DNA from: Candidatus Krumholzibacteriota bacterium
Lineage (GTDB): Bacteria > Krumholzibacteriota > Krumholzibacteriia > LZORAL124-64-63
DNA length: 11,859 nucleotides
NCBI GenBank assembly: GCA_039714075.1
Contig: JBDLKA010000104.1
Location: 1-11,859 of the forward strand
Direction: 5' to 3'
Shown: positions 447-11,859 of the stretch, piece by piece
How positions within the stretch are numbered: the first letter of the stretch is position 1
Layout: every line of letters starts with the position of its first letter
Notes under the pieces: generated by a model
Told to the model about the DNA's origin: nothing
The model's input: the letters and a program-made list of their open reading frames with translations, nothing else
Database searches by the model: none
Position numbers and translations under genes: made by a program

Positions 447-1976
447 TCAATCCCGCTTGCGGTCGCAGGGGCTTCGCCCTCCGTGGCCGCTCTGCTCGTG
501 TAGCCGGTCGCAGGTCTCCATCACCTGGTCGATGCCGAACCTGATGGTCATCGTGATGCAACTGTACAGATAGGGCTGCACTTCGGTGGACTCGGGGTCG
601 TCGATCAGGGCCTTGATGCAGATGCTGTCCAGGGTCTCCAGGGCCCCGACGATCTCCTCCGGGGCGAACCCCTGCTCGATTCTCCTGCTGGCCACTTCGC
701 GGCAATAGGACATGAACTCGGTCTTCATGCGCGTCCGCACGGCGTTGAACAGGTTGCGCAGGACCATGCGGAGGATCCAGTCCAGGTCCTTGGGGGACAT
801 GTTCCCGTAACTCGGGAAATCCTGCCGCAGGGTCCGGGCGGACTCCTCGATGATGTCCTCCTTGTTCTTCACCATCAACGAATGGATCTTCAGGTTGGGG
901 CGGAACCGCACCATCTTCATGGCGTCCCGGTTGCGCCGGGTCCACTCGATCCGGTCGTACTTGAAGTTCTCGATCAGGAACGGCAGCCGGTACAGGATCT
1001 CCAGTCTCCGGCGGGGGAACCAGTTCAGGCGCTCCCGGGTCCGGGAGGCGTCGACGCCCAGTTCCATGTCGACGTACCGGGCCATCCAGGGGCGCTCGAA
1101 GGGTTTCTCGTCGAGAAACCTGCCCACGATGCCCTGGACGACGATGCCGGGCTTGATCAGGGGCCGGGGCATGTGGAACGGAGGCTTGGCGTGGTCGAAG
1201 AAGTACTGGGTGGCTTCGATGAAGAGCTGTTCGTGGGAAACCGCCCCGTCGGGGCTGGCGAGCAGGATCTCCCCGTCCTCCAGGTCCACGTTGCGGACGA
1301 TGATTCGGACCAGGCAGCTCACCAGGTCGTTGACGTGCAGGTAGGGGATCGCGGAATTGCCCCGTCCGCCGAGGATGCGCCGGTTCCAGGCCCGCGACAG
1401 CCAGGTGCGCAGGAACATGTACAGGGGAGGGTATTCGCACCAGTCCGAGAACAGGGCCGCGAACCTCACGATGACCGAAGGAAAGTCGTCGCGATACCCG
1501 GCCAGCATGGCCTCGCCCATGGCCTTGGTCTTGGCGTAGATGTGGTCCCCGTCCGGAGGACTCGATTCGGTCAGGGCCTCGCCGGACGGTGGAAAGGCGC
1601 AGGCCGCCACGGAGCTCGAGAAGATGAACCGGCGGGGCTTCAGCACCCGGCAGTGCTCCAGGACATTGCGCAGGCCCTCGACGTTTGTGCGGTAGTATTC
1701 GGGATGGTCCTCCCCGGTGAAATCGTAGTGGGCCGCCAGATGGATCACGAATTCCACCGGGCCGCCGGCCTGGATCTCCGCGAAGACCTGGTCCAGGGTC
1801 ACCGAGTCCCCGATGTCCACCTGGTGCCACGTGATGTTCGGATGGAAGGGCGCACCGCAGCGGGCCTGCGACCGCCGACCCAGGCCGACGATCTCGTACT
1901 CCTCCTTGAGGCTGTCCAGCAGGTGCCGCCCCACGAAACCCGAGGCCCCGGTCACGATGATGCGCGGTAGAATCAT
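447..1976 (-). CDS. Extended SDR (NAD-dependent epimerase/dehydratase family) oxidoreductase with a C-terminal all-helical RsbRD_N/globin-like domain
   Basis: Rossmann motif IIVTGASGFVG, plus VIHLAA, FSSS and the catalytic YxxxK (YAKTK). About 140 extra C-terminal residues include VASRRIEQGFAPEEIVGAL. GGAGAGG RBS upstream. Confidence 0.9.
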   Translation of the reverse strand: MILPRIIVTGASGFVGRHLLDSLKEEYEIVGLGRRSQARCGAPFHPNITWHQVDIGDSVTLDQVFAEIQAGGPVEFVIHLAAHYDFTGEDHPEYYRTNVEGLRNVLEHCRVLKPRRFIFSSSVAACAFPPSGEALTESSPPDGDHIYAKTKAMGEAMLAGYRDDFPSVIVRFAALFSDWCEYPPLYMFLRTWLSRAWNRRILGGRGNSAIPYLHVNDLVSCLVRIIVRNVDLEDGEILLASPDGAVSHEQLFIEATQYFFDHAKPPFHMPRPLIKPGIVVQGIVGRFLDEKPFERPWMARYVDMELGVDASRTRERLNWFPRRRLEILYRLPFLIENFKYDRIEWTRRNRDAMKMVRFRPNLKIHSLMVKNKEDIIEESARTLRQDFPSYGNMSPKDLDWILRMVLRNLFNAVRTRMKTEFMSYCREVASRRIEQGFAPEEIVGALETLDSICIKALIDDPESTEVQPYLYSCITMTIRFGIDQVMETCDRLHEQSGHGGRSPCDRKRD

Positions 1977-1994: not shown

Positions 1995-2438
1995 TCAGCC
2001 GCCGATGATCACTTCGGTCTCCGTCAGTTTCACTTCGATTTCCCGTAGCGCGTCGCGGGGCGGCCCGTAGGTAGGCCGCCCCGCCGCGTCGAATTTTCCC
2101 TCGTGGCAGGGGCAGAGGTAGATCTGTTCGGCCTCGACCCACCGCACGTTGCATCCCTGGTGGGTGCAAAGGAGCGAGCGGGCCGTCACGGCGTCCACGG
2201 TGCGGACAACCTCCACCGCCCGGTCGTCCCTTTCCAGGCGAACGCGGCGGTTCAGGGGCAGCTCGCCCAGCGGGATGGAAAGGGGTCCCGGCTCCTCGGC
2301 TCCGGGCCGGCAACCCGACAGGAGGTTCCACAGGGGCGCGGCCAGGCACGCGGCGAAGACGCCGCAGCCGCGGGTCATGAATTTCCTCCGGTCGATGACC
2401 CTGAACACAGGTTCGGCATGCCGTCGGGAATCAGTCAC
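1995..2438 (-). CDS. Rieske [2Fe-2S] protein (QcrA/PetC-like) with twin-arginine signal and possible lipobox
   Basis: Box I CTHQGC, box II CPCHEG and a downstream GPP loop. N-terminal DRRKFM, a hydrophobic stretch, then LLSG|C. The GTG start overlaps the hypC 3' end by 8 nt. Confidence 0.93.
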   Translation of the reverse strand: MTDSRRHAEPVFRVIDRRKFMTRGCGVFAACLAAPLWNLLSGCRPGAEEPGPLSIPLGELPLNRRVRLERDDRAVEVVRTVDAVTARSLLCTHQGCNVRWVEAEQIYLCPCHEGKFDAAGRPTYGPPRDALREIEVKLTETEVIIGG

Positions 2439-2682
2439 GGGAAGGAGGCTCGGGCATGGGAGCGTTGCCGAGTTCGCGCAGGGTTTCGATTGTCCTGGCG
2501 GCCTGGCCCTCGTCCAGGAGGGTCAGGGCGAAACCCGCGTGGACGAGGACGAAGTCACCGGGTTCGGCCTCGGGCACGTAGGCCAGGCAGACCTCGAGGG
2601 CCGAGCCGTCGAAATCGACGGTTCCCATGCGAACAAATCCATCCATGATTGCAGTGATTCGACCGGGAACGCCAAGGCACAT
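2431..2682 (-). CDS. hypC: [NiFe]-hydrogenase maturation chaperone, HypC/HybG/HupF family
   Basis: Diagnostic N-terminus MCLGVPG and GDFVLVHAGFAL motif; 83 aa; AGGGGAG RBS upstream. Confidence 0.96.
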   Translation of the reverse strand: MCLGVPGRITAIMDGFVRMGTVDFDGSALEVCLAYVPEAEPGDFVLVHAGFALTLLDEGQAARTIETLRELGNAPMPEPPSRD

Positions 2683-2820: not shown

Positions 2821-3822
2821 CTACTGGATCGCCGTTAACGCCTCGATGGAGTTCATCAACAAAGCTTCCGCATAGCGGGGGTTGTGCACGCCGAGGCTGC
2901 GGTCCTCCGCCAGGCCGATCCAGTTGAAGAACGCCTGGGCCTGGACCATGGAGTAGGTGCCGACGACAGGTTCGTAGGCCTCGTCCTCGACGACCCATTC
3001 AATGACGCCCTGGGCCAGCAGAAGATCCTGGAGTTCATCCAGGAGGGCCTGGGTATCGGTCTGGACGCCGCCATAGTCGAAATCGGCGGTGGCGTGGCAA
3101 CCCTGGCAGCTGGCCAGGCTGGTGTGCCAGGTGTGCCCGCCTTCGCCATCGGTGTATTCACCCATATGGCAGGTGACACAGACAGCCCCGGCCGACACGT
3201 GAATGCTGCTGGTCGGATAGGCGGTGGACCCGGCGATCTCGGCGAACAGGACACCTTCCAGGACGTTGGCCTGGGGCCCGTGATGCGGTCCGTAGTGCGT
3301 GCTCGTGATCTCGAAGGTCTCGCCCGGGTCGGTAATGTTGGGCTCGTTGCGCCGGGACTGGTGGCAGTTGGCGCACAGGTTGCTGGTGCCGCCGAAGTCG
3401 ACCACGTAATCACCGAAGCCCTCATCCGCGATGAAGGCCACCGGCGCGGTGGTCCGCAGGGCGTAATCCTCACCCTGGAAGGTTTCGTGGACCTTGTGGC
3501 AGTGCGCGCAGTTGATGGCGACCGGAGTATTGATGTTGCCGTCCACACCGCCGGTTTCCTGGAACTCGACGAAGCCGTTTCCGCTATGGCAATAGGTGCA
3601 GTAGGAGCGGGTGCCCGCGTAACCCACGTACTCGCCCAGGGCGTGGCCCGAACGCGCGTACTGGATGTTGATGGCGTTCTGGACCTCGGTGTTGTGGCAG
3701 TCGAGACAGGCCGTGCTTCCATCGGCGCCGGCGGGACCGGCTGGTCCCTGGTCGCCTTCACAACCCCAGAATGCAAGGACGGGAATCAGAAAGAGCAGCC
3801 AGACTAATCGATGGAACTTCAT
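2821..3822 (-). CDS. Hexaheme c-type cytochrome lipoprotein with collagen-like linker and helical C-terminus
   Basis: Six CxxCH motifs: CLDCH, CTYCH, CAHCH, CANCH, CVTCH, CQGCH. Signal peptide MKFHRLVWLLFLIPVLAFWG|C, then GDQGPAGPAGADG. Start placed at ATG 3822 rather than 3849 because GGGGGAGG lies just upstream of it. Confidence 0.93.
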   Translation of the reverse strand: MKFHRLVWLLFLIPVLAFWGCEGDQGPAGPAGADGSTACLDCHNTEVQNAINIQYARSGHALGEYVGYAGTRSYCTYCHSGNGFVEFQETGGVDGNINTPVAINCAHCHKVHETFQGEDYALRTTAPVAFIADEGFGDYVVDFGGTSNLCANCHQSRRNEPNITDPGETFEITSTHYGPHHGPQANVLEGVLFAEIAGSTAYPTSSIHVSAGAVCVTCHMGEYTDGEGGHTWHTSLASCQGCHATADFDYGGVQTDTQALLDELQDLLLAQGVIEWVVEDEAYEPVVGTYSMVQAQAFFNWIGLAEDRSLGVHNPRYAEALLMNSIEALTAIQ

Positions 3823-3873
3823 GAAAGACCTCCCCCAGGTAGAATTCATGTAAACCAGTGGGCTGACGGGAAT

Positions 3874-5027: not shown

Positions 5028-5101
5028 CCCCGGGTCATTGTCGCGGGGCCCGTCCGCTTGCAGGCGGGTAAAGACCAGGAATGAACCGGAGAACGCCAGA
5101 C

Positions 5102-5788
5102 ATGATCCCAGACCGATTCCCTTCCCGAATATTCGCCGCCATGCTGCTGGCCGCCTGCCTGACGGCCGCCGCCGGTCCCGCCCATGCCGGCGGCCATCCT
5201 TCCAGCCAGGTGGTTTTCGAGGTGGGGTACGTCACCCCCTCCGGCGACCTCGCCGACGATTTCTTCACCACCGGTCTGGGTCTCGGCATCAAGGAAGGCC
5301 TCGAACTGGGCTTCCGCTGGCGGTACCGTTTTTCCGAATCGCTGTCCGTGTCCCCCTCGTTCCATTTCGTGGACTACAAGAATTTCAAGGGGGAAAACGA
5401 AGCGGCCGGGGCCTACCGGATCAAACCTTCAACCCTGCGTTACAGCCTGGAACTGATGTACGTCCTGCTGGATTCGGACGCCGCGGTGCGGCCCTTCCTG
5501 GCCGCGAGCGGGGGTATCGTCCGGAACCGGGTCGAGGGTTACTGGAAGACCTTCGAAAAGGCGTTCGATTCATCTGTCAGCGCGGCGGGCTTCGCCGGCA
5601 GGGCCGGCTTCCTGGTGGGGGACTTCGAATTCAGTGCGGTCTACAACGTCAACCGCTTCGACACCTGGCGTTTTTTCAACACCGGCTACGAGGAAAGCTA
5701 CGTCTGGGACAACCTGGTCCTGCGGGCGGGATGGATCATTCCCTTCTATAAGGAACCCAGATCCGAAAGAGAAGACGACGAGGAATAG
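5102..5788 (+). CDS. Small outer-membrane beta-barrel protein (OmpA-TM/OMP_b-brl-like, about 8 strands)
   Basis: Sec signal ending PAHA|. Alternating amphipathic strands include VVFEVGY, LELGFRWRYRF, LRYSLELMYV, VRPFLAASGG, FAGRAGF, FEFSAVYN and LVLRAGWII. GGAG RBS before ATG 5102; 5081 is an alternative start. Confidence 0.85.
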   Translation: MIPDRFPSRIFAAMLLAACLTAAAGPAHAGGHPSSQVVFEVGYVTPSGDLADDFFTTGLGLGIKEGLELGFRWRYRFSESLSVSPSFHFVDYKNFKGENEAAGAYRIKPSTLRYSLELMYVLLDSDAAVRPFLAASGGIVRNRVEGYWKTFEKAFDSSVSAAGFAGRAGFLVGDFEFSAVYNVNRFDTWRFFNTGYEESYVWDNLVLRAGWIIPFYKEPRSEREDDEE

Positions 5789-5792
5789 ATGG

Positions 5793-5829
5793 AAAAGGCC
5801 GCCGGTTGTCGTAACCGGCGGCCTTTTTT
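5793..5829. terminator. Bidirectional intrinsic terminator between the convergent barrel and Fn3 genes
   Basis: AAAAGGCCGCCGGTT-GTCGT-AACCGGCGGCCTTTTTT: a perfect long stem with A and T tracts on both sides. Confidence 0.92.
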
Positions 5830-5881
5830 GCCGTTGCGGCAGTCCGAGAGTCCGGATCCCACCATCAACAGTCAGGATCGA

Positions 5882-6244
5882 TCAGAACAGGATGGGTTTG
5901 CCCGGCTGCCCCGGTGCTCCGGCGTCGGGCAGGTACGGGTCGCTGGGCAATGAATAGGGGCCCTGCCGGTTCGAGGCGTCCACTCCTGCGACGCGGATCT
6001 GGTGGGACTGGCCCACCGTGGCGGTCAGGGTGTAGGTGTTGTCGGTCGAGGTGGCGATCTGGGTCCACTGGCCACCGTCCACCGAATGCTCGATGACGTA
6101 GAAATCGACAGGGGTTCCGGTGGTGGGGGCGGTCCAGGTATAGCTGACCGGCATCTCGGTCTGTGCAAGTGAAGATGCGGCGGGCAGGATTACCGCGAGC
6201 AGCACGGCGATCAGGGTGACTTTCACAAGATTGGTGGGTCGCAT
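5882..6244 (-). CDS. Small secreted single fibronectin type III-like domain protein (120 aa)
   Basis: Signal peptide MRPTNLVKVTLIAVLLAVILPAASSLA|. Fn3 hallmarks VSYTWTAP, VDFYVIEHS, QWTQI, YTLT, HQIRVAGVD and GPYS. AAGGA RBS upstream. Start moved from 6418 to ATG 6244 so that it lies downstream of the sigma54 site. Confidence 0.88.
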   Translation of the reverse strand: MRPTNLVKVTLIAVLLAVILPAASSLAQTEMPVSYTWTAPTTGTPVDFYVIEHSVDGGQWTQIATSTDNTYTLTATVGQSHQIRVAGVDASNRQGPYSLPSDPYLPDAGAPGQPGKPILF

Positions 6245-6312
6245 TTCTTCTGCATTCCTTTTCGTACCCTTTGGGCGGGTGGAAACTCGGGTTGTCGCTT
6301 CTGGCCGAAAAT

Positions 6313-6328
6313 TGCAAGGCCGGTGCCA
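6313..6328 (-). promoter_or_regulatory. sigma54 (RpoN) -24/-12 promoter for the Fn3 gene
   Basis: Minus strand TGGCAC-CGGCC-TTGCA with exact GG-N10-GC spacing. Predicted TSS is near 6302, about 58 nt upstream of ATG 6244. Confidence 0.8.
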
Positions 6329-6527
6329 CGGCGCATGTCGGCCGCCGTCCTGATTTGAACCTGAAGGGATGAACGAAGTTCGACTCGCACTTGTTGAGGG
6401 TGGCTGGAAATTGGCCATGGAATTTCAGTCGCACAGGTATCGGCAATCTGCGAAAATGCCTCCATGGCCTTGCAAGTTGCATCCGTGAAAACGAAGTTCA
6501 GGATCAAAGACCAGGTTGTAACCATCT

Positions 6528-7874
6528 GTGAATAAAGAAATAACAAGACGTCTGGGACCCGCTTATCCTCTCACCAAAGCCTGGTTCGGGCTTTCCGTTG
6601 TTTACTCGGGATTCCTCGCGGTGGGCTTTGTTTTCCATTTCGTCCCTCCTGTCCTTCCGGTGGTGATCGAGGATCTGGGCATCACCCACGGGCAGGCCGG
6701 ACTGCTGATGTCCCTGTTCGCCCTGCCGGGGATCCTGCTGTCCATTCCCGGCGGCTGGCTGGCCGATCGTTTCGGGGAACGCGTGGTCGGAAGCGTGGGG
6801 CTGGCCGTCATGGGGGCCGGAACCCTGGTATTGGCCCGGTCGGGTGAGTTCTTTCTGATCCTGGCCGGGCGGACCCTTTCCGGCGTGGGCGTCGTCATCG
6901 CCGTGATCGCGATGCAGAGAATGGTGACCCGCCTGTTCGGGGGCCGCCCCCTGGGGGTTCCCATGGGTGTCAGCGGCAGCGCCATTCCCCTGGGCATCAT
7001 CCTGGTATTGAACCTGGCGGGGCCCGTGGCGGCGGAACACGGCTGGCGCGAGGTTGCTTTCCGGACAGGTCTGTTTTCCATCGTGGTCGCGGGAGTATTC
7101 CTGGGTGCTAGCTGGTTTCTGACCCGGGGCCGATCCCTGGGTGTGGCGGCGAGTGAACTTCCGGCCCGGTCTCATGAAGACGCCGCCGCCCGGGTCCGGG
7201 GAATGAGGGCCATCTGGATCGTCGGTGGGGTCTGGTTCTGCGCCAACGGCGCCATGACGGCTTTCATGACCTTCGCTCCCGACCATTACCTGGATCTGGG
7301 CATGGGGGTCAAGGCACGCGGCCTGATGACCAGTGTTCCCATGTGGGCTTCCGCCCTTCTGGGACCGGTGACGGGCTGGTTGGCGGACCGCCACGGCGGC
7401 AAGGCGGCCTTCATCGGCTGGGGGATGGGCCTGATGGCGGTTTGTCTGGCGCTTGTTCCGGCCACGGTCCTTTCTCCGGCGGTGTTGGGGCTGGGACTGG
7501 GCGTGGCCCTGGCCTCGATGGTGACCCCGACCATGTCCCTGCCGGGGACGGTGCTGCCGCCGTCGCACATCGGACGGGGATTCGGCATCCTCAGCACCTG
7601 CGCCAACTTGGGCATATTCGCGATCCCGCCCCTGGCGGGGTACGTCCGGGATGTCAGCGGCGGCTACGGCCGGCCCTTCTGGCTGATGGCCGCCGTGGCG
7701 GCGGCCGGAGTGGCGGCGGCCGAAATGCTGCGCCGTGGCCGCTTCACGCCCGGATTCACTATCGGTGTCCAGAATCACCTTGTGGCCGGGGCGGGTGTTG
7801 ATGAAATTGTGCCAAATCGCCTTACTGAGCCGCCAATCGTGAAAGGGAAACGTGATGAACCAGGAAGTGCTTGA
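6528..7874 (+). CDS. Major facilitator superfamily transporter (12 TM)
   Basis: MFS motif A appears twice (GWLADRFGER; GWLADRHGGK), with about 12 hydrophobic segments. The start codon (GTG, no clear RBS) and the last ~40 aa are less certain. Confidence 0.92.
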   Translation: MNKEITRRLGPAYPLTKAWFGLSVVYSGFLAVGFVFHFVPPVLPVVIEDLGITHGQAGLLMSLFALPGILLSIPGGWLADRFGERVVGSVGLAVMGAGTLVLARSGEFFLILAGRTLSGVGVVIAVIAMQRMVTRLFGGRPLGVPMGVSGSAIPLGIILVLNLAGPVAAEHGWREVAFRTGLFSIVVAGVFLGASWFLTRGRSLGVAASELPARSHEDAAARVRGMRAIWIVGGVWFCANGAMTAFMTFAPDHYLDLGMGVKARGLMTSVPMWASALLGPVTGWLADRHGGKAAFIGWGMGLMAVCLALVPATVLSPAVLGLGLGVALASMVTPTMSLPGTVLPPSHIGRGFGILSTCANLGIFAIPPLAGYVRDVSGGYGRPFWLMAAVAAAGVAAAEMLRRGRFTPGFTIGVQNHLVAGAGVDEIVPNRLTEPPIVKGKRDEPGSA

Positions 7875-8397
7875 ACTCTGGCCGGAACTGATGTGGATCG
7901 AGGACGAAAAACTGCGCGGGACCACGGCCAAAACATGGGAACTGGCCCTGGAGCGCAGCCCCCTGACCGTCGAGGATCTCAACACCATTCCCTTTACCCT
8001 GCTCGTTCCGGACCTGAAAGTCAGCTTCATGGCCCACAAGCGCTGCGTGGTGCATGTGGCGCGCGACGCCGCCGTCAAGATGAACGAGTTCTTCACCGAC
8101 GACCTGCCGGTGGACATGGACGTGACCATCGCCGGGGCGATCCTGGCGGACGTGGGCAAGCTGTTGGAGTACGACATCAAGGACGGCGAGTCCTGCAAAA
8201 GTGAAATGGGCAAGTACCTGCGCCACCCGTTCACGGGCGTCGCCCTGGCCCTGGAGGCGGGCGTGCCGGAGTCGGTCTGCCACATCATCGCCGCCCATGC
8301 GGGTGAAGGTGACATGATCACGCGTTCGACCGAGGCCTACGTGGTCCATCACGCTGATTTCATGACCTTCCTGCCCTTCAAGAAGCGGCTGAAGTAG
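7855..8397 (+). CDS. HD/HDIG-fold metal-dependent phosphohydrolase-like protein with variant AD motif
   Basis: Motif order AHK...GAILADVGKLLEY...RHPFTG...HIIAAH...EAYVVHHADF matches the HD superfamily. AAGGGA RBS; start is ATG 7855 or GTG 7852. Confidence 0.88.
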   Translation: MNQEVLELWPELMWIEDEKLRGTTAKTWELALERSPLTVEDLNTIPFTLLVPDLKVSFMAHKRCVVHVARDAAVKMNEFFTDDLPVDMDVTIAGAILADVGKLLEYDIKDGESCKSEMGKYLRHPFTGVALALEAGVPESVCHIIAAHAGEGDMITRSTEAYVVHHADFMTFLPFKKRLK

Positions 8398-8920: not shown

Positions 8921-10369
8921 ATGCGCAAGTTCGTCAACGGTAAAGGCACCCTGACCTGGATGACCGCGGTATTGCTGATAACCGCGGCCGCATCCACGGC
9001 GGCATCTTCGGCCCTGGCCCAGGCTCCGGTGGACCACCAGCTGCGTTCCTATGCGGACGTCGCGGAAACCACCATGCCGGCGGTGGTCAACATCTCGACG
9101 GATAAACTGGTGGACAACAGCATGGGCCAGCACCCGTTCATGAACGATCCCATGTTCAAGCGCTTTTTCAACATGCCGGACGACGACGTGCACAACCAGC
9201 CCGAGCGCCTGGAGCATTCCCTGGGTTCGGGCATCGTGATTTCGGCCGACGGCTACATCCTGACCAACAACCATGTGGTCGAGAACGCCAGCAAGGTCCG
9301 GGTGACCTTCGTGGGCGAAAGGGAATACGAGGCCGAGGTCATCGGCACCGATCCCCCGACCGATGTGGCGCTGATCAAGATCGACGCGGAGAACCTGCCC
9401 ACCGTGCGGGTCGGCGACAGCGACCAGCTGCGGGTCGGCGACCAGGTCATGGCCATCGGCAATCCCTTCGGGGTGGGCCAGACCGTGACCCTGGGCATCG
9501 TCAGTGCTCTGGGGCGCAATATCGGCCTGATGGACTACGCGGACCTGATCCAGACCGACGCCTCGATCAACCCCGGCAACAGCGGCGGCGCCCTGGTTAA
9601 CATGCGGGGCGAGCTGGTGGGCATGAACGCGGCCATCCTGAGCCGCAGCGGGGGCAGCCAGGGCATCGGCTTCGCCATTCCCACGAGCATGGCCATGCGT
9701 ATCGTCGATTCCCTCAAGGAGTCCGGCACCGTGCAGCGGGCCTATCTGGGTGTCCTGCCCCAGCCGGTGGACCAGTCCATGGCCGACTACTACGGCATGG
9801 ACCGGCCCCGCGGCGTCCTGATCACGCAGGTCAACGAGGACACGCCGGCCGAAAAGGCGGGCCTGATGGACGGGGACATCATTCTCAGTGTCGACGGCCG
9901 CGAGATCAGGAATCCCAGCATGCTGCGCAATGTGATCAGCCTGTCGGAGGTGGGCCAGGACGTTGAGCTGGCCATCGTGCGGGAAGGCAAGGAGCAGAAC
10001 ATCACCGTCAGGCTGGACAAGTTCCCCGATCCCGAACAGATGGCCGCCGCGGACGTCCCGGCGGATCCCGACGAGGATGAAACTCTCGACGGCGTTGTCG
10101 TTCGCGAAATGACCCCCCGGATGCGGACCATGATGGAGACCCTGCCCGAGGATATCGAGGGCCTGATCGTGACCGGCGTGGAGCAGACCAGCAACGCCGC
10201 CCGCGAGGGTCTGGCCGAGGGTGATATCATCCAGAAGGTCGGCGGTGAAACGGTGACGACATTGAAGGCGTTCCAAGGCGCCCTGGGGAAGAACACCGAC
10301 CGGCCCGTGTTTCTGCGGGTCTACAAACCGCGGCAGCAGCAGAGTATTTTTATCGCCGTGCCGCGGTAG
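8921..10369 (+). CDS. degP: Periplasmic HtrA-family serine endoprotease Do/DegP/DegQ with two PDZ domains
   Basis: Signal peptide; LGSGIVIS, TNNHVV (His), DVALIK (Asp), QTDASINPGNSGGAL (Ser); two PDZ domains (PAEKAGLMDGDII; AAREGLAEGDII). GGGAGG RBS. degP versus degQ cannot be resolved from sequence alone. Confidence 0.96.
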   Translation: MRKFVNGKGTLTWMTAVLLITAAASTAASSALAQAPVDHQLRSYADVAETTMPAVVNISTDKLVDNSMGQHPFMNDPMFKRFFNMPDDDVHNQPERLEHSLGSGIVISADGYILTNNHVVENASKVRVTFVGEREYEAEVIGTDPPTDVALIKIDAENLPTVRVGDSDQLRVGDQVMAIGNPFGVGQTVTLGIVSALGRNIGLMDYADLIQTDASINPGNSGGALVNMRGELVGMNAAILSRSGGSQGIGFAIPTSMAMRIVDSLKESGTVQRAYLGVLPQPVDQSMADYYGMDRPRGVLITQVNEDTPAEKAGLMDGDIILSVDGREIRNPSMLRNVISLSEVGQDVELAIVREGKEQNITVRLDKFPDPEQMAAADVPADPDEDETLDGVVVREMTPRMRTMMETLPEDIEGLIVTGVEQTSNAAREGLAEGDIIQKVGGETVTTLKAFQGALGKNTDRPVFLRVYKPRQQQSIFIAVPR

Positions 10370-10391
10370 TCGTTCCGCGGGCCTGAATGAA

Positions 10392-10416
10392 GGAACCCCC
10401 GGAATCAGGGGGTTCT
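10392..10416 (+). terminator. Stem-loop after the degP-like gene, possible terminator
   Basis: GAACCCCC-GGAATCA-GGGGGTTC, but no good U-tract follows. Confidence 0.45.
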
Positions 10417-10419
10417 CCA

Positions 10420-10449
10420 TTGATCCCGCTATCTCATTCATGGTATGAT
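10420..10449 (+). promoter_or_regulatory. Extended -10 sigma70 promoter for the S8 protease gene
   Basis: TTGATC (10420-10425), 18 nt, TATGAT (10444-10449), with TG at 10441-10442 (TGnTATGAT). Confidence 0.6.
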
Positions 10450-10546
10450 GAGTAGCGGTATGGTTTCCGGAAAGGGGGAGATCCAACCCGGGAATTCATA
10501 TTCCGCTGTCCGCCAGACGCTCGCCACCCCATCGTTTGGAGAAACC

Positions 10547-11859
10547 ATGTCCCGACCCCGCCAATGGCTATCCTATGTCCTGTTGTTATGTATCATGGTG
10601 TTCGCGACGGCCGCGATGGCTGCCGACAGCACCGCGCCCCGCGCCTTCGCTCCGGTGCAGGAGGGCTTCACCACCCAGGCTGAAATGAGCCTGCCCTACG
10701 CGGCGGACCGCATTCTGGTCCAGTTCCGCGACCTGAATATGGATAAATCGGCTCTGGCCGTGGGCCTGGACAGGGGAACGCAGGTTCCCGGCGCCAGGAC
10801 CGGCCTGCCTTCGGTCGACAATCTGGCCTTCGCCTACGGAGTGACCGGTGTCGAGCGCCCCTATTACCGGATCAAGAACCAGGACAAGGCCGCCGGTTTC
10901 GGTCAGGACCGCTGGTTCATGTACCACTTCACCACCGATGCGGACATGGCCGAAGTGGCCAAGGCCTTCCGGGCCGATCCCAATATCGAAGCGGTGTCCC
11001 TGGACTGGCGCGCCTATCCCGCCGCCGTTCCCAACGATCCCCTTTATCCCGACCAGTGGGGCCACGACAACACCGGCCAGATGCTTTCCTACGACTGGAA
11101 CACCCACACCCATACGGGCCCGGCCGTCGGTACCACCGGCTTCGATTCGCATGCCCAGGAGGCCTGGGACAAGAGCCAGGGTTACGGCAGTGCTTCTGTG
11201 GTCGTCGCCATTCTGGACAGCGGTGTGGACATCGACCATCCCGACCTGAACCTGGTCGCGGGCTACGATTACGGTGACAACGATTCCAATCCCGACGACA
11301 ACAGCGGCAATGCGGGCCACGGCACCGCTTGCGCGGGTGTGGCGGCGGCTGTTTCGAACAACAACCTGGGCGTGTCCGGTATCGCCGGCGGCAGCAGCAT
11401 CATGCCCCTGAAGGTCGCCAACAGCGCGGGCTCGATGTACTTCTCCAACATCCAGAACGCCCTCTATCACGCCGCGGACAACGGCGCCGACATCGCCAGC
11501 ATGAGCTTCAGCGCCGACATCAGCAGCGACGCCGCCACCGACGCGGCTCTGCAGTACGCGTACAACGCGGGTGTTTTGCTCCTGGCGGCCACCAGCAACT
11601 CGAACGAAAGCCACACGCGCTACCCCGCCAACAACCAGTACGTGATGGGCATCGGTGCGGCTTCGCCCTGCGGCGACCGGAAGCGGTCGGCCAGTAACAC
11701 GGCGTACCTCAACCCCGGTGTGGATCCCGATCCCAACGACTACACCTGCGACGGCGAGCGCTGGTGGGGCTCCAACTACGGTTCGACCACCCAGGACGCC
11801 GGCAACGCCGTGGACGTGATCGCCCCGACGATCATGCCGACGACCGACATCGGCGGCAG
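10547..11859 (+). CDS. Secreted S8 (subtilisin-like) serine peptidase, 3'-truncated by the window edge
   Basis: Manual translation from ATG 10547 (GGAG RBS) is open to the window end. It shows signal peptide MSRPRQWLSYVLLLCIMVFATAAMA, a propeptide, PNDPLYPDQWG, VVVAILDSGVDIDHPDL (Asp), GHGTACAGVAAA (His) and AATSN (oxyanion Asn). The catalytic Ser lies beyond the window. Confidence 0.96.
   Translation, partial: MSRPRQWLSYVLLLCIMVFATAAMAADSTAPRAFAPVQEGFTTQAEMSLPYAADRILVQFRDLNMDKSALAVGLDRGTQVPGARTGLPSVDNLAFAYGVTGVERPYYRIKNQDKAAGFGQDRWFMYHFTTDADMAEVAKAFRADPNIEAVSLDWRAYPAAVPNDPLYPDQWGHDNTGQMLSYDWNTHTHTGPAVGTTGFDSHAQEAWDKSQGYGSASVVVAILDSGVDIDHPDLNLVAGYDYGDNDSNPDDNSGNAGHGTACAGVAAAVSNNNLGVSGIAGGSSIMPLKVANSAGSMYFSNIQNALYHAADNGADIASMSFSADISSDAATDAALQYAYNAGVLLLAATSNSNESHTRYPANNQYVMGIGAASPCGDRKRSASNTAYLNPGVDPDPNDYTCDGERWWGSNYGSTTQDAGNAVDVIAPTIMPTTDIGG

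Follow-up and report, generated by a model that had tools for sequence, protein, structure and literature searches.

The window, which is the whole stretch of 11,859 nucleotides analysed here, comes from a contig of a Candidatus Krumholzibacteriota bacterium. When the minus strand was translated between positions 5882 and 6244, the frame gave the 120-aa protein that the preliminary description had quoted, with QTEMP followed by VSYTWTAP and the same C-terminal end (...GPYSLPSDPYLPDAGAPGQPGKPILF). The following features were recognized at the locus.

5882..6244, minus strand: coding sequence of a 120-aa Fn3-like protein; stop codon at 5882-5884, start at 6244 conserved in orthologues
6164..6244, minus strand: predicted signal peptide, residues 1-27, read from the sequence (basic N-terminus, hydrophobic core, SLA/Q)
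5933..6163, minus strand: six-stranded Fn3 core, mature residues 1-77, strands B, C, C', E, F and G (AlphaFold2, Foldseek and VIA)
5885..5932, minus strand: C-terminal tail LPDAGAPGQPGKPILF, mature residues 78-93, delimited by the invariant P84, P87, G88 and P90, by tandem relatives and by the model
5885-5914, minus strand: last ten residues of the tail, PxxPGxP plus an I-x-F motif, equivalent to strand A of a following Fn3 repeat
6313..6328, minus strand: sigma-54 promoter TGGCAC-N5-TTGCA, TGGCACCGGCCTTGCA, an exact consensus 68 nt upstream of the ATG
6472-6480 and 6443-6451, minus strand: putative upstream activator site consisting of two GCA-N3-TGC palindromes, proposed from their recurrence in orthologues
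5793..5827, both strands: bidirectional intrinsic terminator hairpin (15-bp, GC-rich) common to the Fn3 gene and the convergent OMP gene
5081..5788, plus strand: convergent OMP gene for a small 8-stranded outer-membrane beta-barrel (Pfam and AlphaFold2), listed with no partnership implied

The signal peptide is of the predicted Sec type and its sequence points to a Sec-exported product; the AxA/Q cleavage motif is kept in 61 orthologues. The mature protein has 93 aa (9.9 kDa, pI 4.4) and no cysteine, and only the five residues QTEMP lie between the cleavage motif and VSYTWTAP. An alternative 178-aa frame starting at 6418 overlaps the promoter. All homologues are named 'hypothetical protein' in the databases.

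When a word-indexed search was performed, 263 proteins were found at E <= 0.001 among 288 candidates of 66-210 aa. Nearly all of the 120 homologues listed have 110-122 aa, and the few longer ones are apparently upstream start calls. A scan with one genome per species gave 67 loci, nearly all from Candidatus Krumholzibacteriia/Krumholzibacteriota or from unnamed or otherwise-labelled MAGs. Sixty-one of these loci are clean orthologue gene models, and four (L064-L067) are paralogues. The mature alignment consists of 62 rows (the window protein and the 61 orthologues from the loci), and pooling both sources, the homologue search and the loci, gave 181 unique mature sequences. At E <= 1e-10 the gene was present in 76 of 86 genomes sampled from its own GTDB family and in none of 114 genomes from the eight other families of the phylum. 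It was also missing from all seven genomes (85-98% complete) of genus g4 of its own family; given this loss, the gene appears to be dispensable.

Fifteen positions are invariant in the 62 rows (W10, P13, G16, V19, Y22, R57, V58, D62, G68, S71, S74, P84, P87, G88 and P90), and the mean column identity is 66%, compared with values down to about 30% for the OMP neighbour of the same orthologues. Of the 181 unique sequences, 129 have 93 residues in the mature form. When the alignment was checked for co-conservation of the missing N-terminal strand and the terminal motif, both were found to be kept, with start and tail architecture alike in 62/62 aligned and in the 181 unique sequences; the register-shifted architecture is therefore not due to chance. 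A truncated multi-Fn3 gene, which the preliminary description had named as a contrary finding, was looked for among the homologues, and a constant stand-alone gene of about 120 aa was found instead. Since length, start and stop are constant across the family, the gene is not a truncated one. Even without polymerisation, these sequences define a protein family that had no name before and that serves as a marker of one uncultured bacterial family.

The gene had been described as monocistronic, with its own sigma-54 promoter and a strong terminator, and on all three counts the larger data set agrees: the gene stands alone, the promoter recurs and the hairpin is strong. With up to 2 mismatches allowed, the promoter was found 37-116 nt upstream of the chosen start in 61/61 orthologue loci (33 with 0, 19 with 1 and 9 with 2 mismatches), a count to be read on the scale of a shuffled 3.3-kb locus, which gives 1.34 such matches on both strands together. 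A search for sigma-70-like sites from 5500 to 6700 gave none. With <= 2 mismatches allowed, 27 of the 62 rows have the proximal palindrome 111-136 nt upstream of the -24 box (at -120 to -124 in 21 of the 27), and in its own genome the combination of palindrome pair and promoter is unique to the Fn3 gene.

That genome (4.06 Mb, 92% complete) contains 6 exact and 74 one-mismatch sigma-54 sites, an rpoN gene (214 bits) and 17 strong activator genes (205 bits or more), so that the promoter, sigma factor and activators of a sigma-54-dependent gene are all represented in the sequence. Downstream of the other five exact sites lie genes for a type IV pilin-like protein, an MglA-like GTPase, two lipoproteins, one of them Fn3-like, and an Fn3 paralogue that carries a T9SS-type C-terminal domain. 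A sigma-54 activator gene was found within the flanks in just one of 63 gene models. The terminator hairpin (-28.4 kcal/mol, z -5.8) has an A-run before and a U-run after it, a plus-strand terminator was also detected, and from its sequence the hairpin can end both convergent genes. A stand-alone, conditionally transcribed gene is well supported by these sequence features and would constitute, even without polymerisation, an unusually clear single-gene sigma-54 regulon. A search for sequencing runs gave 2 DNA runs from one study and none of RNA.

The convergent gene product scores 28.4 bits against Pfam OMP_b-brl (cut-off 28.7 bits), was modelled by AlphaFold2 with about eight strands (pLDDT 89.7) and is structurally nearest to the OmpA transmembrane domain, Ail, OmpX, OmpW and NspA. 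It adjoins the Fn3 gene in 58 loci, the two stop codons being mostly 50-120 bp apart. On the other flank, genes for an HD protein (49 loci), a ferredoxin (48) and an HtrA-type protease with two PDZ domains (44) are transcribed away from the Fn3 gene, and an MFS transporter gene lies in between in 16 loci. The OMP family was found in 84 of 86 genomes of the same GTDB family versus none of 114 in other families. In genus g4 the OMP gene was present in 7/7 genomes and the Fn3 gene in 0/7, and one g4 locus reads OMP, MFS, HD with nothing between. The barrel is thus independent of the Fn3 protein and was ruled out as its obligate partner; the whole gene block may simply be syntenic. A conserved acidic C-tail of the OMP was also considered and was discarded, as this tail is not conserved. 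Neither a chaperone, an usher, a secretin nor any other assembly or export gene was found linked among the 11 window neighbours (by Pfam) or in the synteny of 67 loci. The one secretin gene of the genome is located away from the Fn3 gene.

The mature protein (5885-6163, minus strand) was modelled using AlphaFold2 with the alignment of 62 mature sequences (mean pLDDT 94.1, pTM 0.78). Six strands were predicted (mature residues 3-9, 21-28, 34-39, 43-49, 54-61 and 67-70, with a bridge at 77), of which the first (3-9) corresponds to strand B, with nothing strand-like before it. When the core was compared with known structures, the best match was titin A168-A170 (VIA Z 11.1, 79 residues, rmsd 1.8 A), and the top Foldseek matches were titin and twitchin Fn3 domains (TM 0.70). 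In a PDB sequence search, titin (8q6t_I) was matched at E 4e-10 summed over domains, with the best stretch at residues 21-117, followed by the sidekick-2 Fn3 (E 7.4e-4) and FN3con (E 1.3e-3).

The Pfam fn3 match is weak (E 0.014; 16.1 bits, cut-off 25) and aligns residues 30-101 with model positions 13-81 of 84; as positions 1-12 have no counterpart, the strand-A part of the family is unmatched. The suggested absence of strand A is thereby borne out by both the six-strand model and the profile. By gathering score the protein falls outside PF00041 and by its beta-sandwich fold it is an Fn3, one with six strands and not the seven strands A-G in one chain with A at the N-terminus. A precomputed PF00041 match exists for 2 of the 120 homologues listed. 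For the Fn3 protein itself, a Pfam scan at E <= 0.01 returned no family match, and NCBIfam gave just a sub-threshold 'choice_anch_V' (19.8 versus 42 bits). In the ESM Atlas, the protein's own cluster and two unnamed 'viral' clusters at 0.93 were seen, which serve as leads only.

A complete sandwich or a tail folded in cis in a confident monomer model was the outcome that the preliminary description had considered damaging, and neither occurred. Mature residues 78-93 contain zero strands by DSSP at pLDDT 81-85, and all five AlphaFold2 models are confident. When residues 2-93 of the model were superposed on the titin tandem A77-A78 (chain residues 18-113), 91 residues were aligned at an rmsd of 2.8 A. 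From this superposition the modelled tail runs away from the domain and points outward like a linker plus the first strand of a next repeat, not back onto its own strand B, a reading derived from the aligned ranges and the DSSP string. AlphaFold2 may place the tail outwards merely from learnt tandem Fn3 geometry.

From the last Pro to the chain end there are 3-4 (rarely 5) mostly hydrophobic residues. The three residues after the last Pro in most of the 181 sequences are ILF (63), IVF (20), IIF (17) and others. The chain ends with F in 153 sequences, and I (10), M (6), L (5), P (4), G (2) and S (1) make up the rest. At the last three positions, column entropies of 0.78 (I91), 2.25 (L92) and 1.29 bits (F93) give an in-out-in pattern, as would be expected of a beta-strand packing on a hydrophobic core.

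When the family profile was run against 1.84 billion representative proteins, 3523 matched at E <= 0.001, the top ones being giant tandem Fn3 proteins, in which as many as 35 stretches were matched. The best stretch in many of these tandem proteins extends from about profile position 30 to 114-119 and so includes the tail. A word-based search for longer relatives had returned none at E <= 0.001 among 1019 candidates; the profile search does find tandem ones. The protein P0153 (337 aa, three domains, 36-42% identity to the window protein) illustrates the relationship: '...GMPRRPGIIF' is followed by 'TDVTNRQATAFWYEP' at its first junction, and '...GVPGKPHLAF' by 'DDTLRQARASWTAP' at its second, leading into the A-B turn and strand B of the next domain. 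The window protein, by comparison, ends in '...PGKPILF' and begins, once mature, with 'QTEMPVSYTWTAP'. The proposal that the tail is strand A of a would-be next repeat gains by this continuation of the motif into the next domain as well as by the overlay on tandem titin.

A junction survey was also carried out, in which the distance from the last Pro of P-[GSA]-x-P to the strand-B Trp was recorded for 945 junctions in 128 tandem representatives. The spacing was 15 residues in 360, 16 in 277 and 12 in 40 junctions. If the tail is joined to the protein's own N-terminus, the distance is 15 residues from P87, the modal spacing, and 12 from P90, a value seen in 40/945. The sequence and the model together indicate that the protein is a single Fn3 period, with the cut in strand A or directly behind it.

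Two further matches were found in the same genome, on contigs C13 and C49. The C13 paralogue represents a second family of about 120-125 aa, in which the N-terminal hydrophobic segment has no AxA site, strand B is preceded by about 15 residues, and the conserved end is shorter (...PYTPELAPPGF or ...PPEF). No sigma-54 site was found near this paralogue. In the C49 paralogue, strand B directly follows the signal peptide, and the core is followed by an NYPNPFNPET-type C-terminal domain, which we take to be T9SS-type, with no such tail. A third paralogue type (L094, L095 and L097), present in some genomes, has the architecture of the window protein with a longer linker. The window protein itself ends 16 residues after strand G, and the C-terminal sorting domain of about 80 residues that marks T9SS cargo is absent from it.

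The best-supported reading of the sequences and the model, to which we give slightly less than an even chance, is self-association in which the tail strand of one copy completes another copy in trans. A Sec-exported 93-residue Fn3 module would have its repeat register shifted by one strand, with strand B first and the strand A of a next repeat last, and its open strand-B edge and exposed core would be filled by the PxxPGxP-I-x-F tail of another copy (donor-strand complementation). Residues I118 and F120 of the donor (mature 91 and 93) would be placed in the acceptor core, and a seven-stranded domain would be rebuilt across the interface. Head-to-tail repetition would give a non-covalent chain like a tandem Fn3 array nicked once per repeat, and the alternative product would be a closed, reciprocally swapped dimer, which fits the data as well as an open fibre does. 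An open-ended filament, rather unlikely overall, takes the larger share of the chance given to trans complementation, the remainder going to the closed swapped dimer or a small oligomer. Transcription would depend on sigma-54 and a dedicated activator bound at the palindromes about 120 and 150 nt upstream of the -24 box, and under such control the protein would be made on a signal. Insertion in trans and its stoichiometry are what we infer here, as are the cellular compartment and the signal for induction.

The trans reading is favoured by the open six-strand model, the constrained tail, the tandem homology, the P87 spacing, the conservation and the promoter, as well as by the type IV pilin-like gene behind another of the six exact sigma-54 sites. 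Against it count the lack of a linked assembly or export gene, the rarity of the P90 spacing of 12 and the loss of the gene in genus g4. With the Sec signal alone, the protein may also stay periplasmic, where uncontrolled polymerisation would be unusual.

A minimal donor-strand filament, a 'nicked titin' built from 10-kDa subunits cut within strand A and free of chaperone and usher, is a doubtful outcome as matters stand. Here a four-residue strand and a polyproline lead-in would hold the polymer together, and the dedicated sigma-54 activator would switch it on. At the inner membrane, the membrane-anchored paralogue with its shorter ...PELAPPGF tail might act as the seed or anchor of the chain, and the product would be an elastic tether or fibre in the envelope of this Krumholzibacteriota family. 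If true, this would be the smallest donor-strand subunit, an Fn3 module register-shifted by design; it would show a covalent tandem array evolving into a non-covalent self-assembling one, or the reverse, and protein materials could draw on it as a simple building block that is genetically encodable and free of cysteine.

The alternative that survives best, possible and still on the unlikely side, is a stable six-stranded monomeric Fn3 of the periplasm or surface whose proline-rich tail, with its hydrophobic C-terminus, serves to dock onto another protein. Hydrophobic C-termini are ligands of PDZ domains, and candidate partners include the PDZ domains of the syntenic HtrA/DegP-type protease (two PDZ domains, conserved block in 44 loci), the OMP adjacent in 58 loci and the membrane-anchored Fn3 paralogue, whose family has the similar end ...PELAPPGF. 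The C49 paralogue also favours docking: its strand-A-less core has no tail, and the six-stranded core may therefore be stable alone. However, PDZ binding leaves the invariant PxxPGxP unexplained, and those tails among the 181 that have a terminal P (4), G (2) or S (1) would be poor PDZ ligands. Furthermore, the OMP persists where the Fn3 gene has been lost, the candidate partner genes are convergent or divergent with none co-transcribed with the Fn3 gene, and the strand-A equivalence of the tail points to an Fn3 groove as the receptor.

It was also considered that the protein is a circular permutant, in which the last 4-5 residues fill its own strand-A position and a closed seven-stranded monomer has an ordinary envelope binding role; this we regard as improbable. 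The preliminary description had argued, from the merely interdomain length of the linker, that the tail would complete the next subunit more readily than its own, an argument that is only partly sound, since the eleven residues from the end of strand G to KPILF would, on Fn3 topology, be enough for a short return loop, and partial closure by the last 4-5 residues appears sterically possible. Other points count against cis closure: in five confident AlphaFold2 models, residues 78-93 form no DSSP strand and the tail overlays an outward tandem linker, and only part of the conserved ten-residue motif could line strand B. Covariation could be cited in favour of the permutant, as L92 and F93 co-vary with Q1, E3, M4 and S53 at the pole of the strand-A end (top MI-APC pairs include Q1-L92, S53-F93 and M4-L92), but this fits insertion in trans equally. 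It was not counted as evidence, because in the core tree the N-terminal length changes independently only 3 times and the signal is inseparable from phylogeny.

A functionless, decaying remnant of a multi-Fn3 gene or a mis-called ORF, to which the sub-threshold Pfam fn3 score and the uniform 'hypothetical protein' names might point, deserves almost no credence against 263 homologues of constant length, a gene in 76/86 family genomes with 66% column identity, conserved start, stop, promoter and terminator, and a confident model.

Self-association through the tail was then set against known systems. Chaperone-usher pilins are Ig-like, lack one strand and carry a terminal extension that fills the groove of a neighbour. 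The missing strand and terminal extension of these pilins (Pap/Fim, Caf1) resemble those of the window protein; in the pilins, strand G at the C-terminus is the one missing and the donated extension is N-terminal, whereas the window protein lacks strand A and its candidate donor is C-terminal. The pilins also need a co-encoded periplasmic chaperone and usher, and no PapD-like chaperone or usher gene was found at the Fn3 locus (11 neighbours, 67 loci). Type V pilins of Bacteroidota (FimA, Mfa1) are two-domain lipoproteins of several hundred residues from which a protease removes the N-terminal strand. The window protein, in contrast, has neither the lipobox Cys nor the second domain of a type V pilin; it is a single 93-residue domain in which the strand is absent from the start. 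The Krumholzibacteriota host belongs to the FCB superphylum, like the Bacteroidota.

In type V pilins, the absent N-terminal strand of the next subunit is replaced by a C-terminal strand (PMC13655056), and donor-strand complementation in pilins, including CPR Pam pili, is covered in PMC13278184. Polymers formed by donor strands free of chaperones are described for the archaeal cannulae CanA (PMC12518558) and for Bacillus TasA (PMC9674648); an Fn3 subunit of such small size is not described in the sections of those papers that were consulted. If the polymer reading is right, CanA and TasA, as portrayed there, are the nearest functional analogy, being beta-sandwich proteins that self-assemble with no usher. 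They differ in having other folds, an N-terminal donor strand, an extracellular location and a monoderm or archaeal host. Donor-strand complementation occurs both in Ig-like pilins, which rely on chaperones, ushers or proteases, and in a small number of archaeal and Gram-positive polymers that do without a chaperone. The window protein lies outside the known donor-strand families because it has no chaperone or usher, no lipobox, another fold and a C-terminal donor equivalent to strand A. A limited search of the open-access literature found no comparable Fn3 subunit described, which is not proof of absence.

Among Fn3 proteins, the strand-swapped dimer of an engineered consensus Fn3 (PDB 4m6a) indicates that strand A can be exchanged between molecules; this example is engineered, uses an N-terminal strand and forms a closed dimer, unlike a natural permuted subunit. 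Tandem Fn3 arrays (the titin A-band, giant bacterial multi-Fn3 proteins and P0153) share with the window protein the fold and the PxxPxxP linker followed by a hydrophobic strand A, whereas the window protein has one repeat per chain, cut within or after strand A, and any link between its repeats would be non-covalent.

When the 4.06-Mb genome of the organism was scanned with the sigma-54 consensus, only six exact TGGCAC-N5-TTGCW sites were found, one of which belongs to the Fn3 gene of the window. The five remaining sites lie on contigs C3, C10, C49, C92 and C168, and the genes behind them encode a type IV pilin-like protein, an Fn3 paralogue whose C-terminal domain is of the T9SS type, an Fn3-like lipoprotein (138 aa), a lipoprotein of 416 aa and an MglA-like GTPase. 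Judged from these genes, surface and envelope proteins seem to be the sigma-54 targets in this organism.

A further conserved family of single-Fn3 proteins (approximately 120-125 aa), distinct from the window protein, was also observed. One member is encoded on contig C13 of the same genome (locus L069, 1495-1941, minus strand) and others are found in loci L082-L084, L087-L090 and L093. The members have a hydrophobic anchor at the N-terminus, no AxA site and a conserved C-terminus (...PYTPELAPPGF or ...PPEF). Such proteins might serve the window protein as a partner or seed anchored in the membrane.

The Fn3 gene is accompanied in the window by the following genes:

5081-5788, plus strand, small 8-stranded outer-membrane barrel (OMP)
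6528-7874, plus strand, MFS gene
7852-8397, plus strand, HD-domain gene
8921-10369, plus strand, HtrA/DegP-type protease carrying two PDZ domains
from 10445 up to the window end, after the HtrA/DegP-type protease, subtilase with an S8 N-terminal domain

The OMP barrel, which scores marginally under the Pfam OMP_b-brl threshold, is confined to the GTDB family of the window (84/86 genomes versus 0/114 in the eight other families of the phylum), and many genomes carry a second copy at another site. The HD-domain gene begins inside the MFS gene and shares its last 23 nt (7852-7874). Only 16 of the loci have the MFS gene between Fn3 and HD, and it therefore appears to have been inserted into a divergent Fn3/HD pair that is older. 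In genus g4 of the same family, locus L079 (900-3500) has the gene order OMP, MFS, HD without the Fn3 gene; among the seven genomes sampled, the Fn3 gene is present in none and the OMP gene in all, which looks like a clean lineage-specific loss of the former.

In 44 loci the HtrA/DegP-type protease lies in synteny with the Fn3 gene. In the window, this protease and the subtilase together cover 8921-11857.

The left part of the window contains a cytochrome gene and three further genes, which follow it on the same strand in this order:

2821-3849, minus strand, secreted multihaem c-type cytochrome (342 aa; several CxxCH motifs, NrfA/MtrC-like Pfam matches)
2431-2682, minus strand, HypC
1995-2438, minus strand, Rieske protein
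447-1976, minus strand, NAD-epimerase fused to an RsbRD_N-like domain
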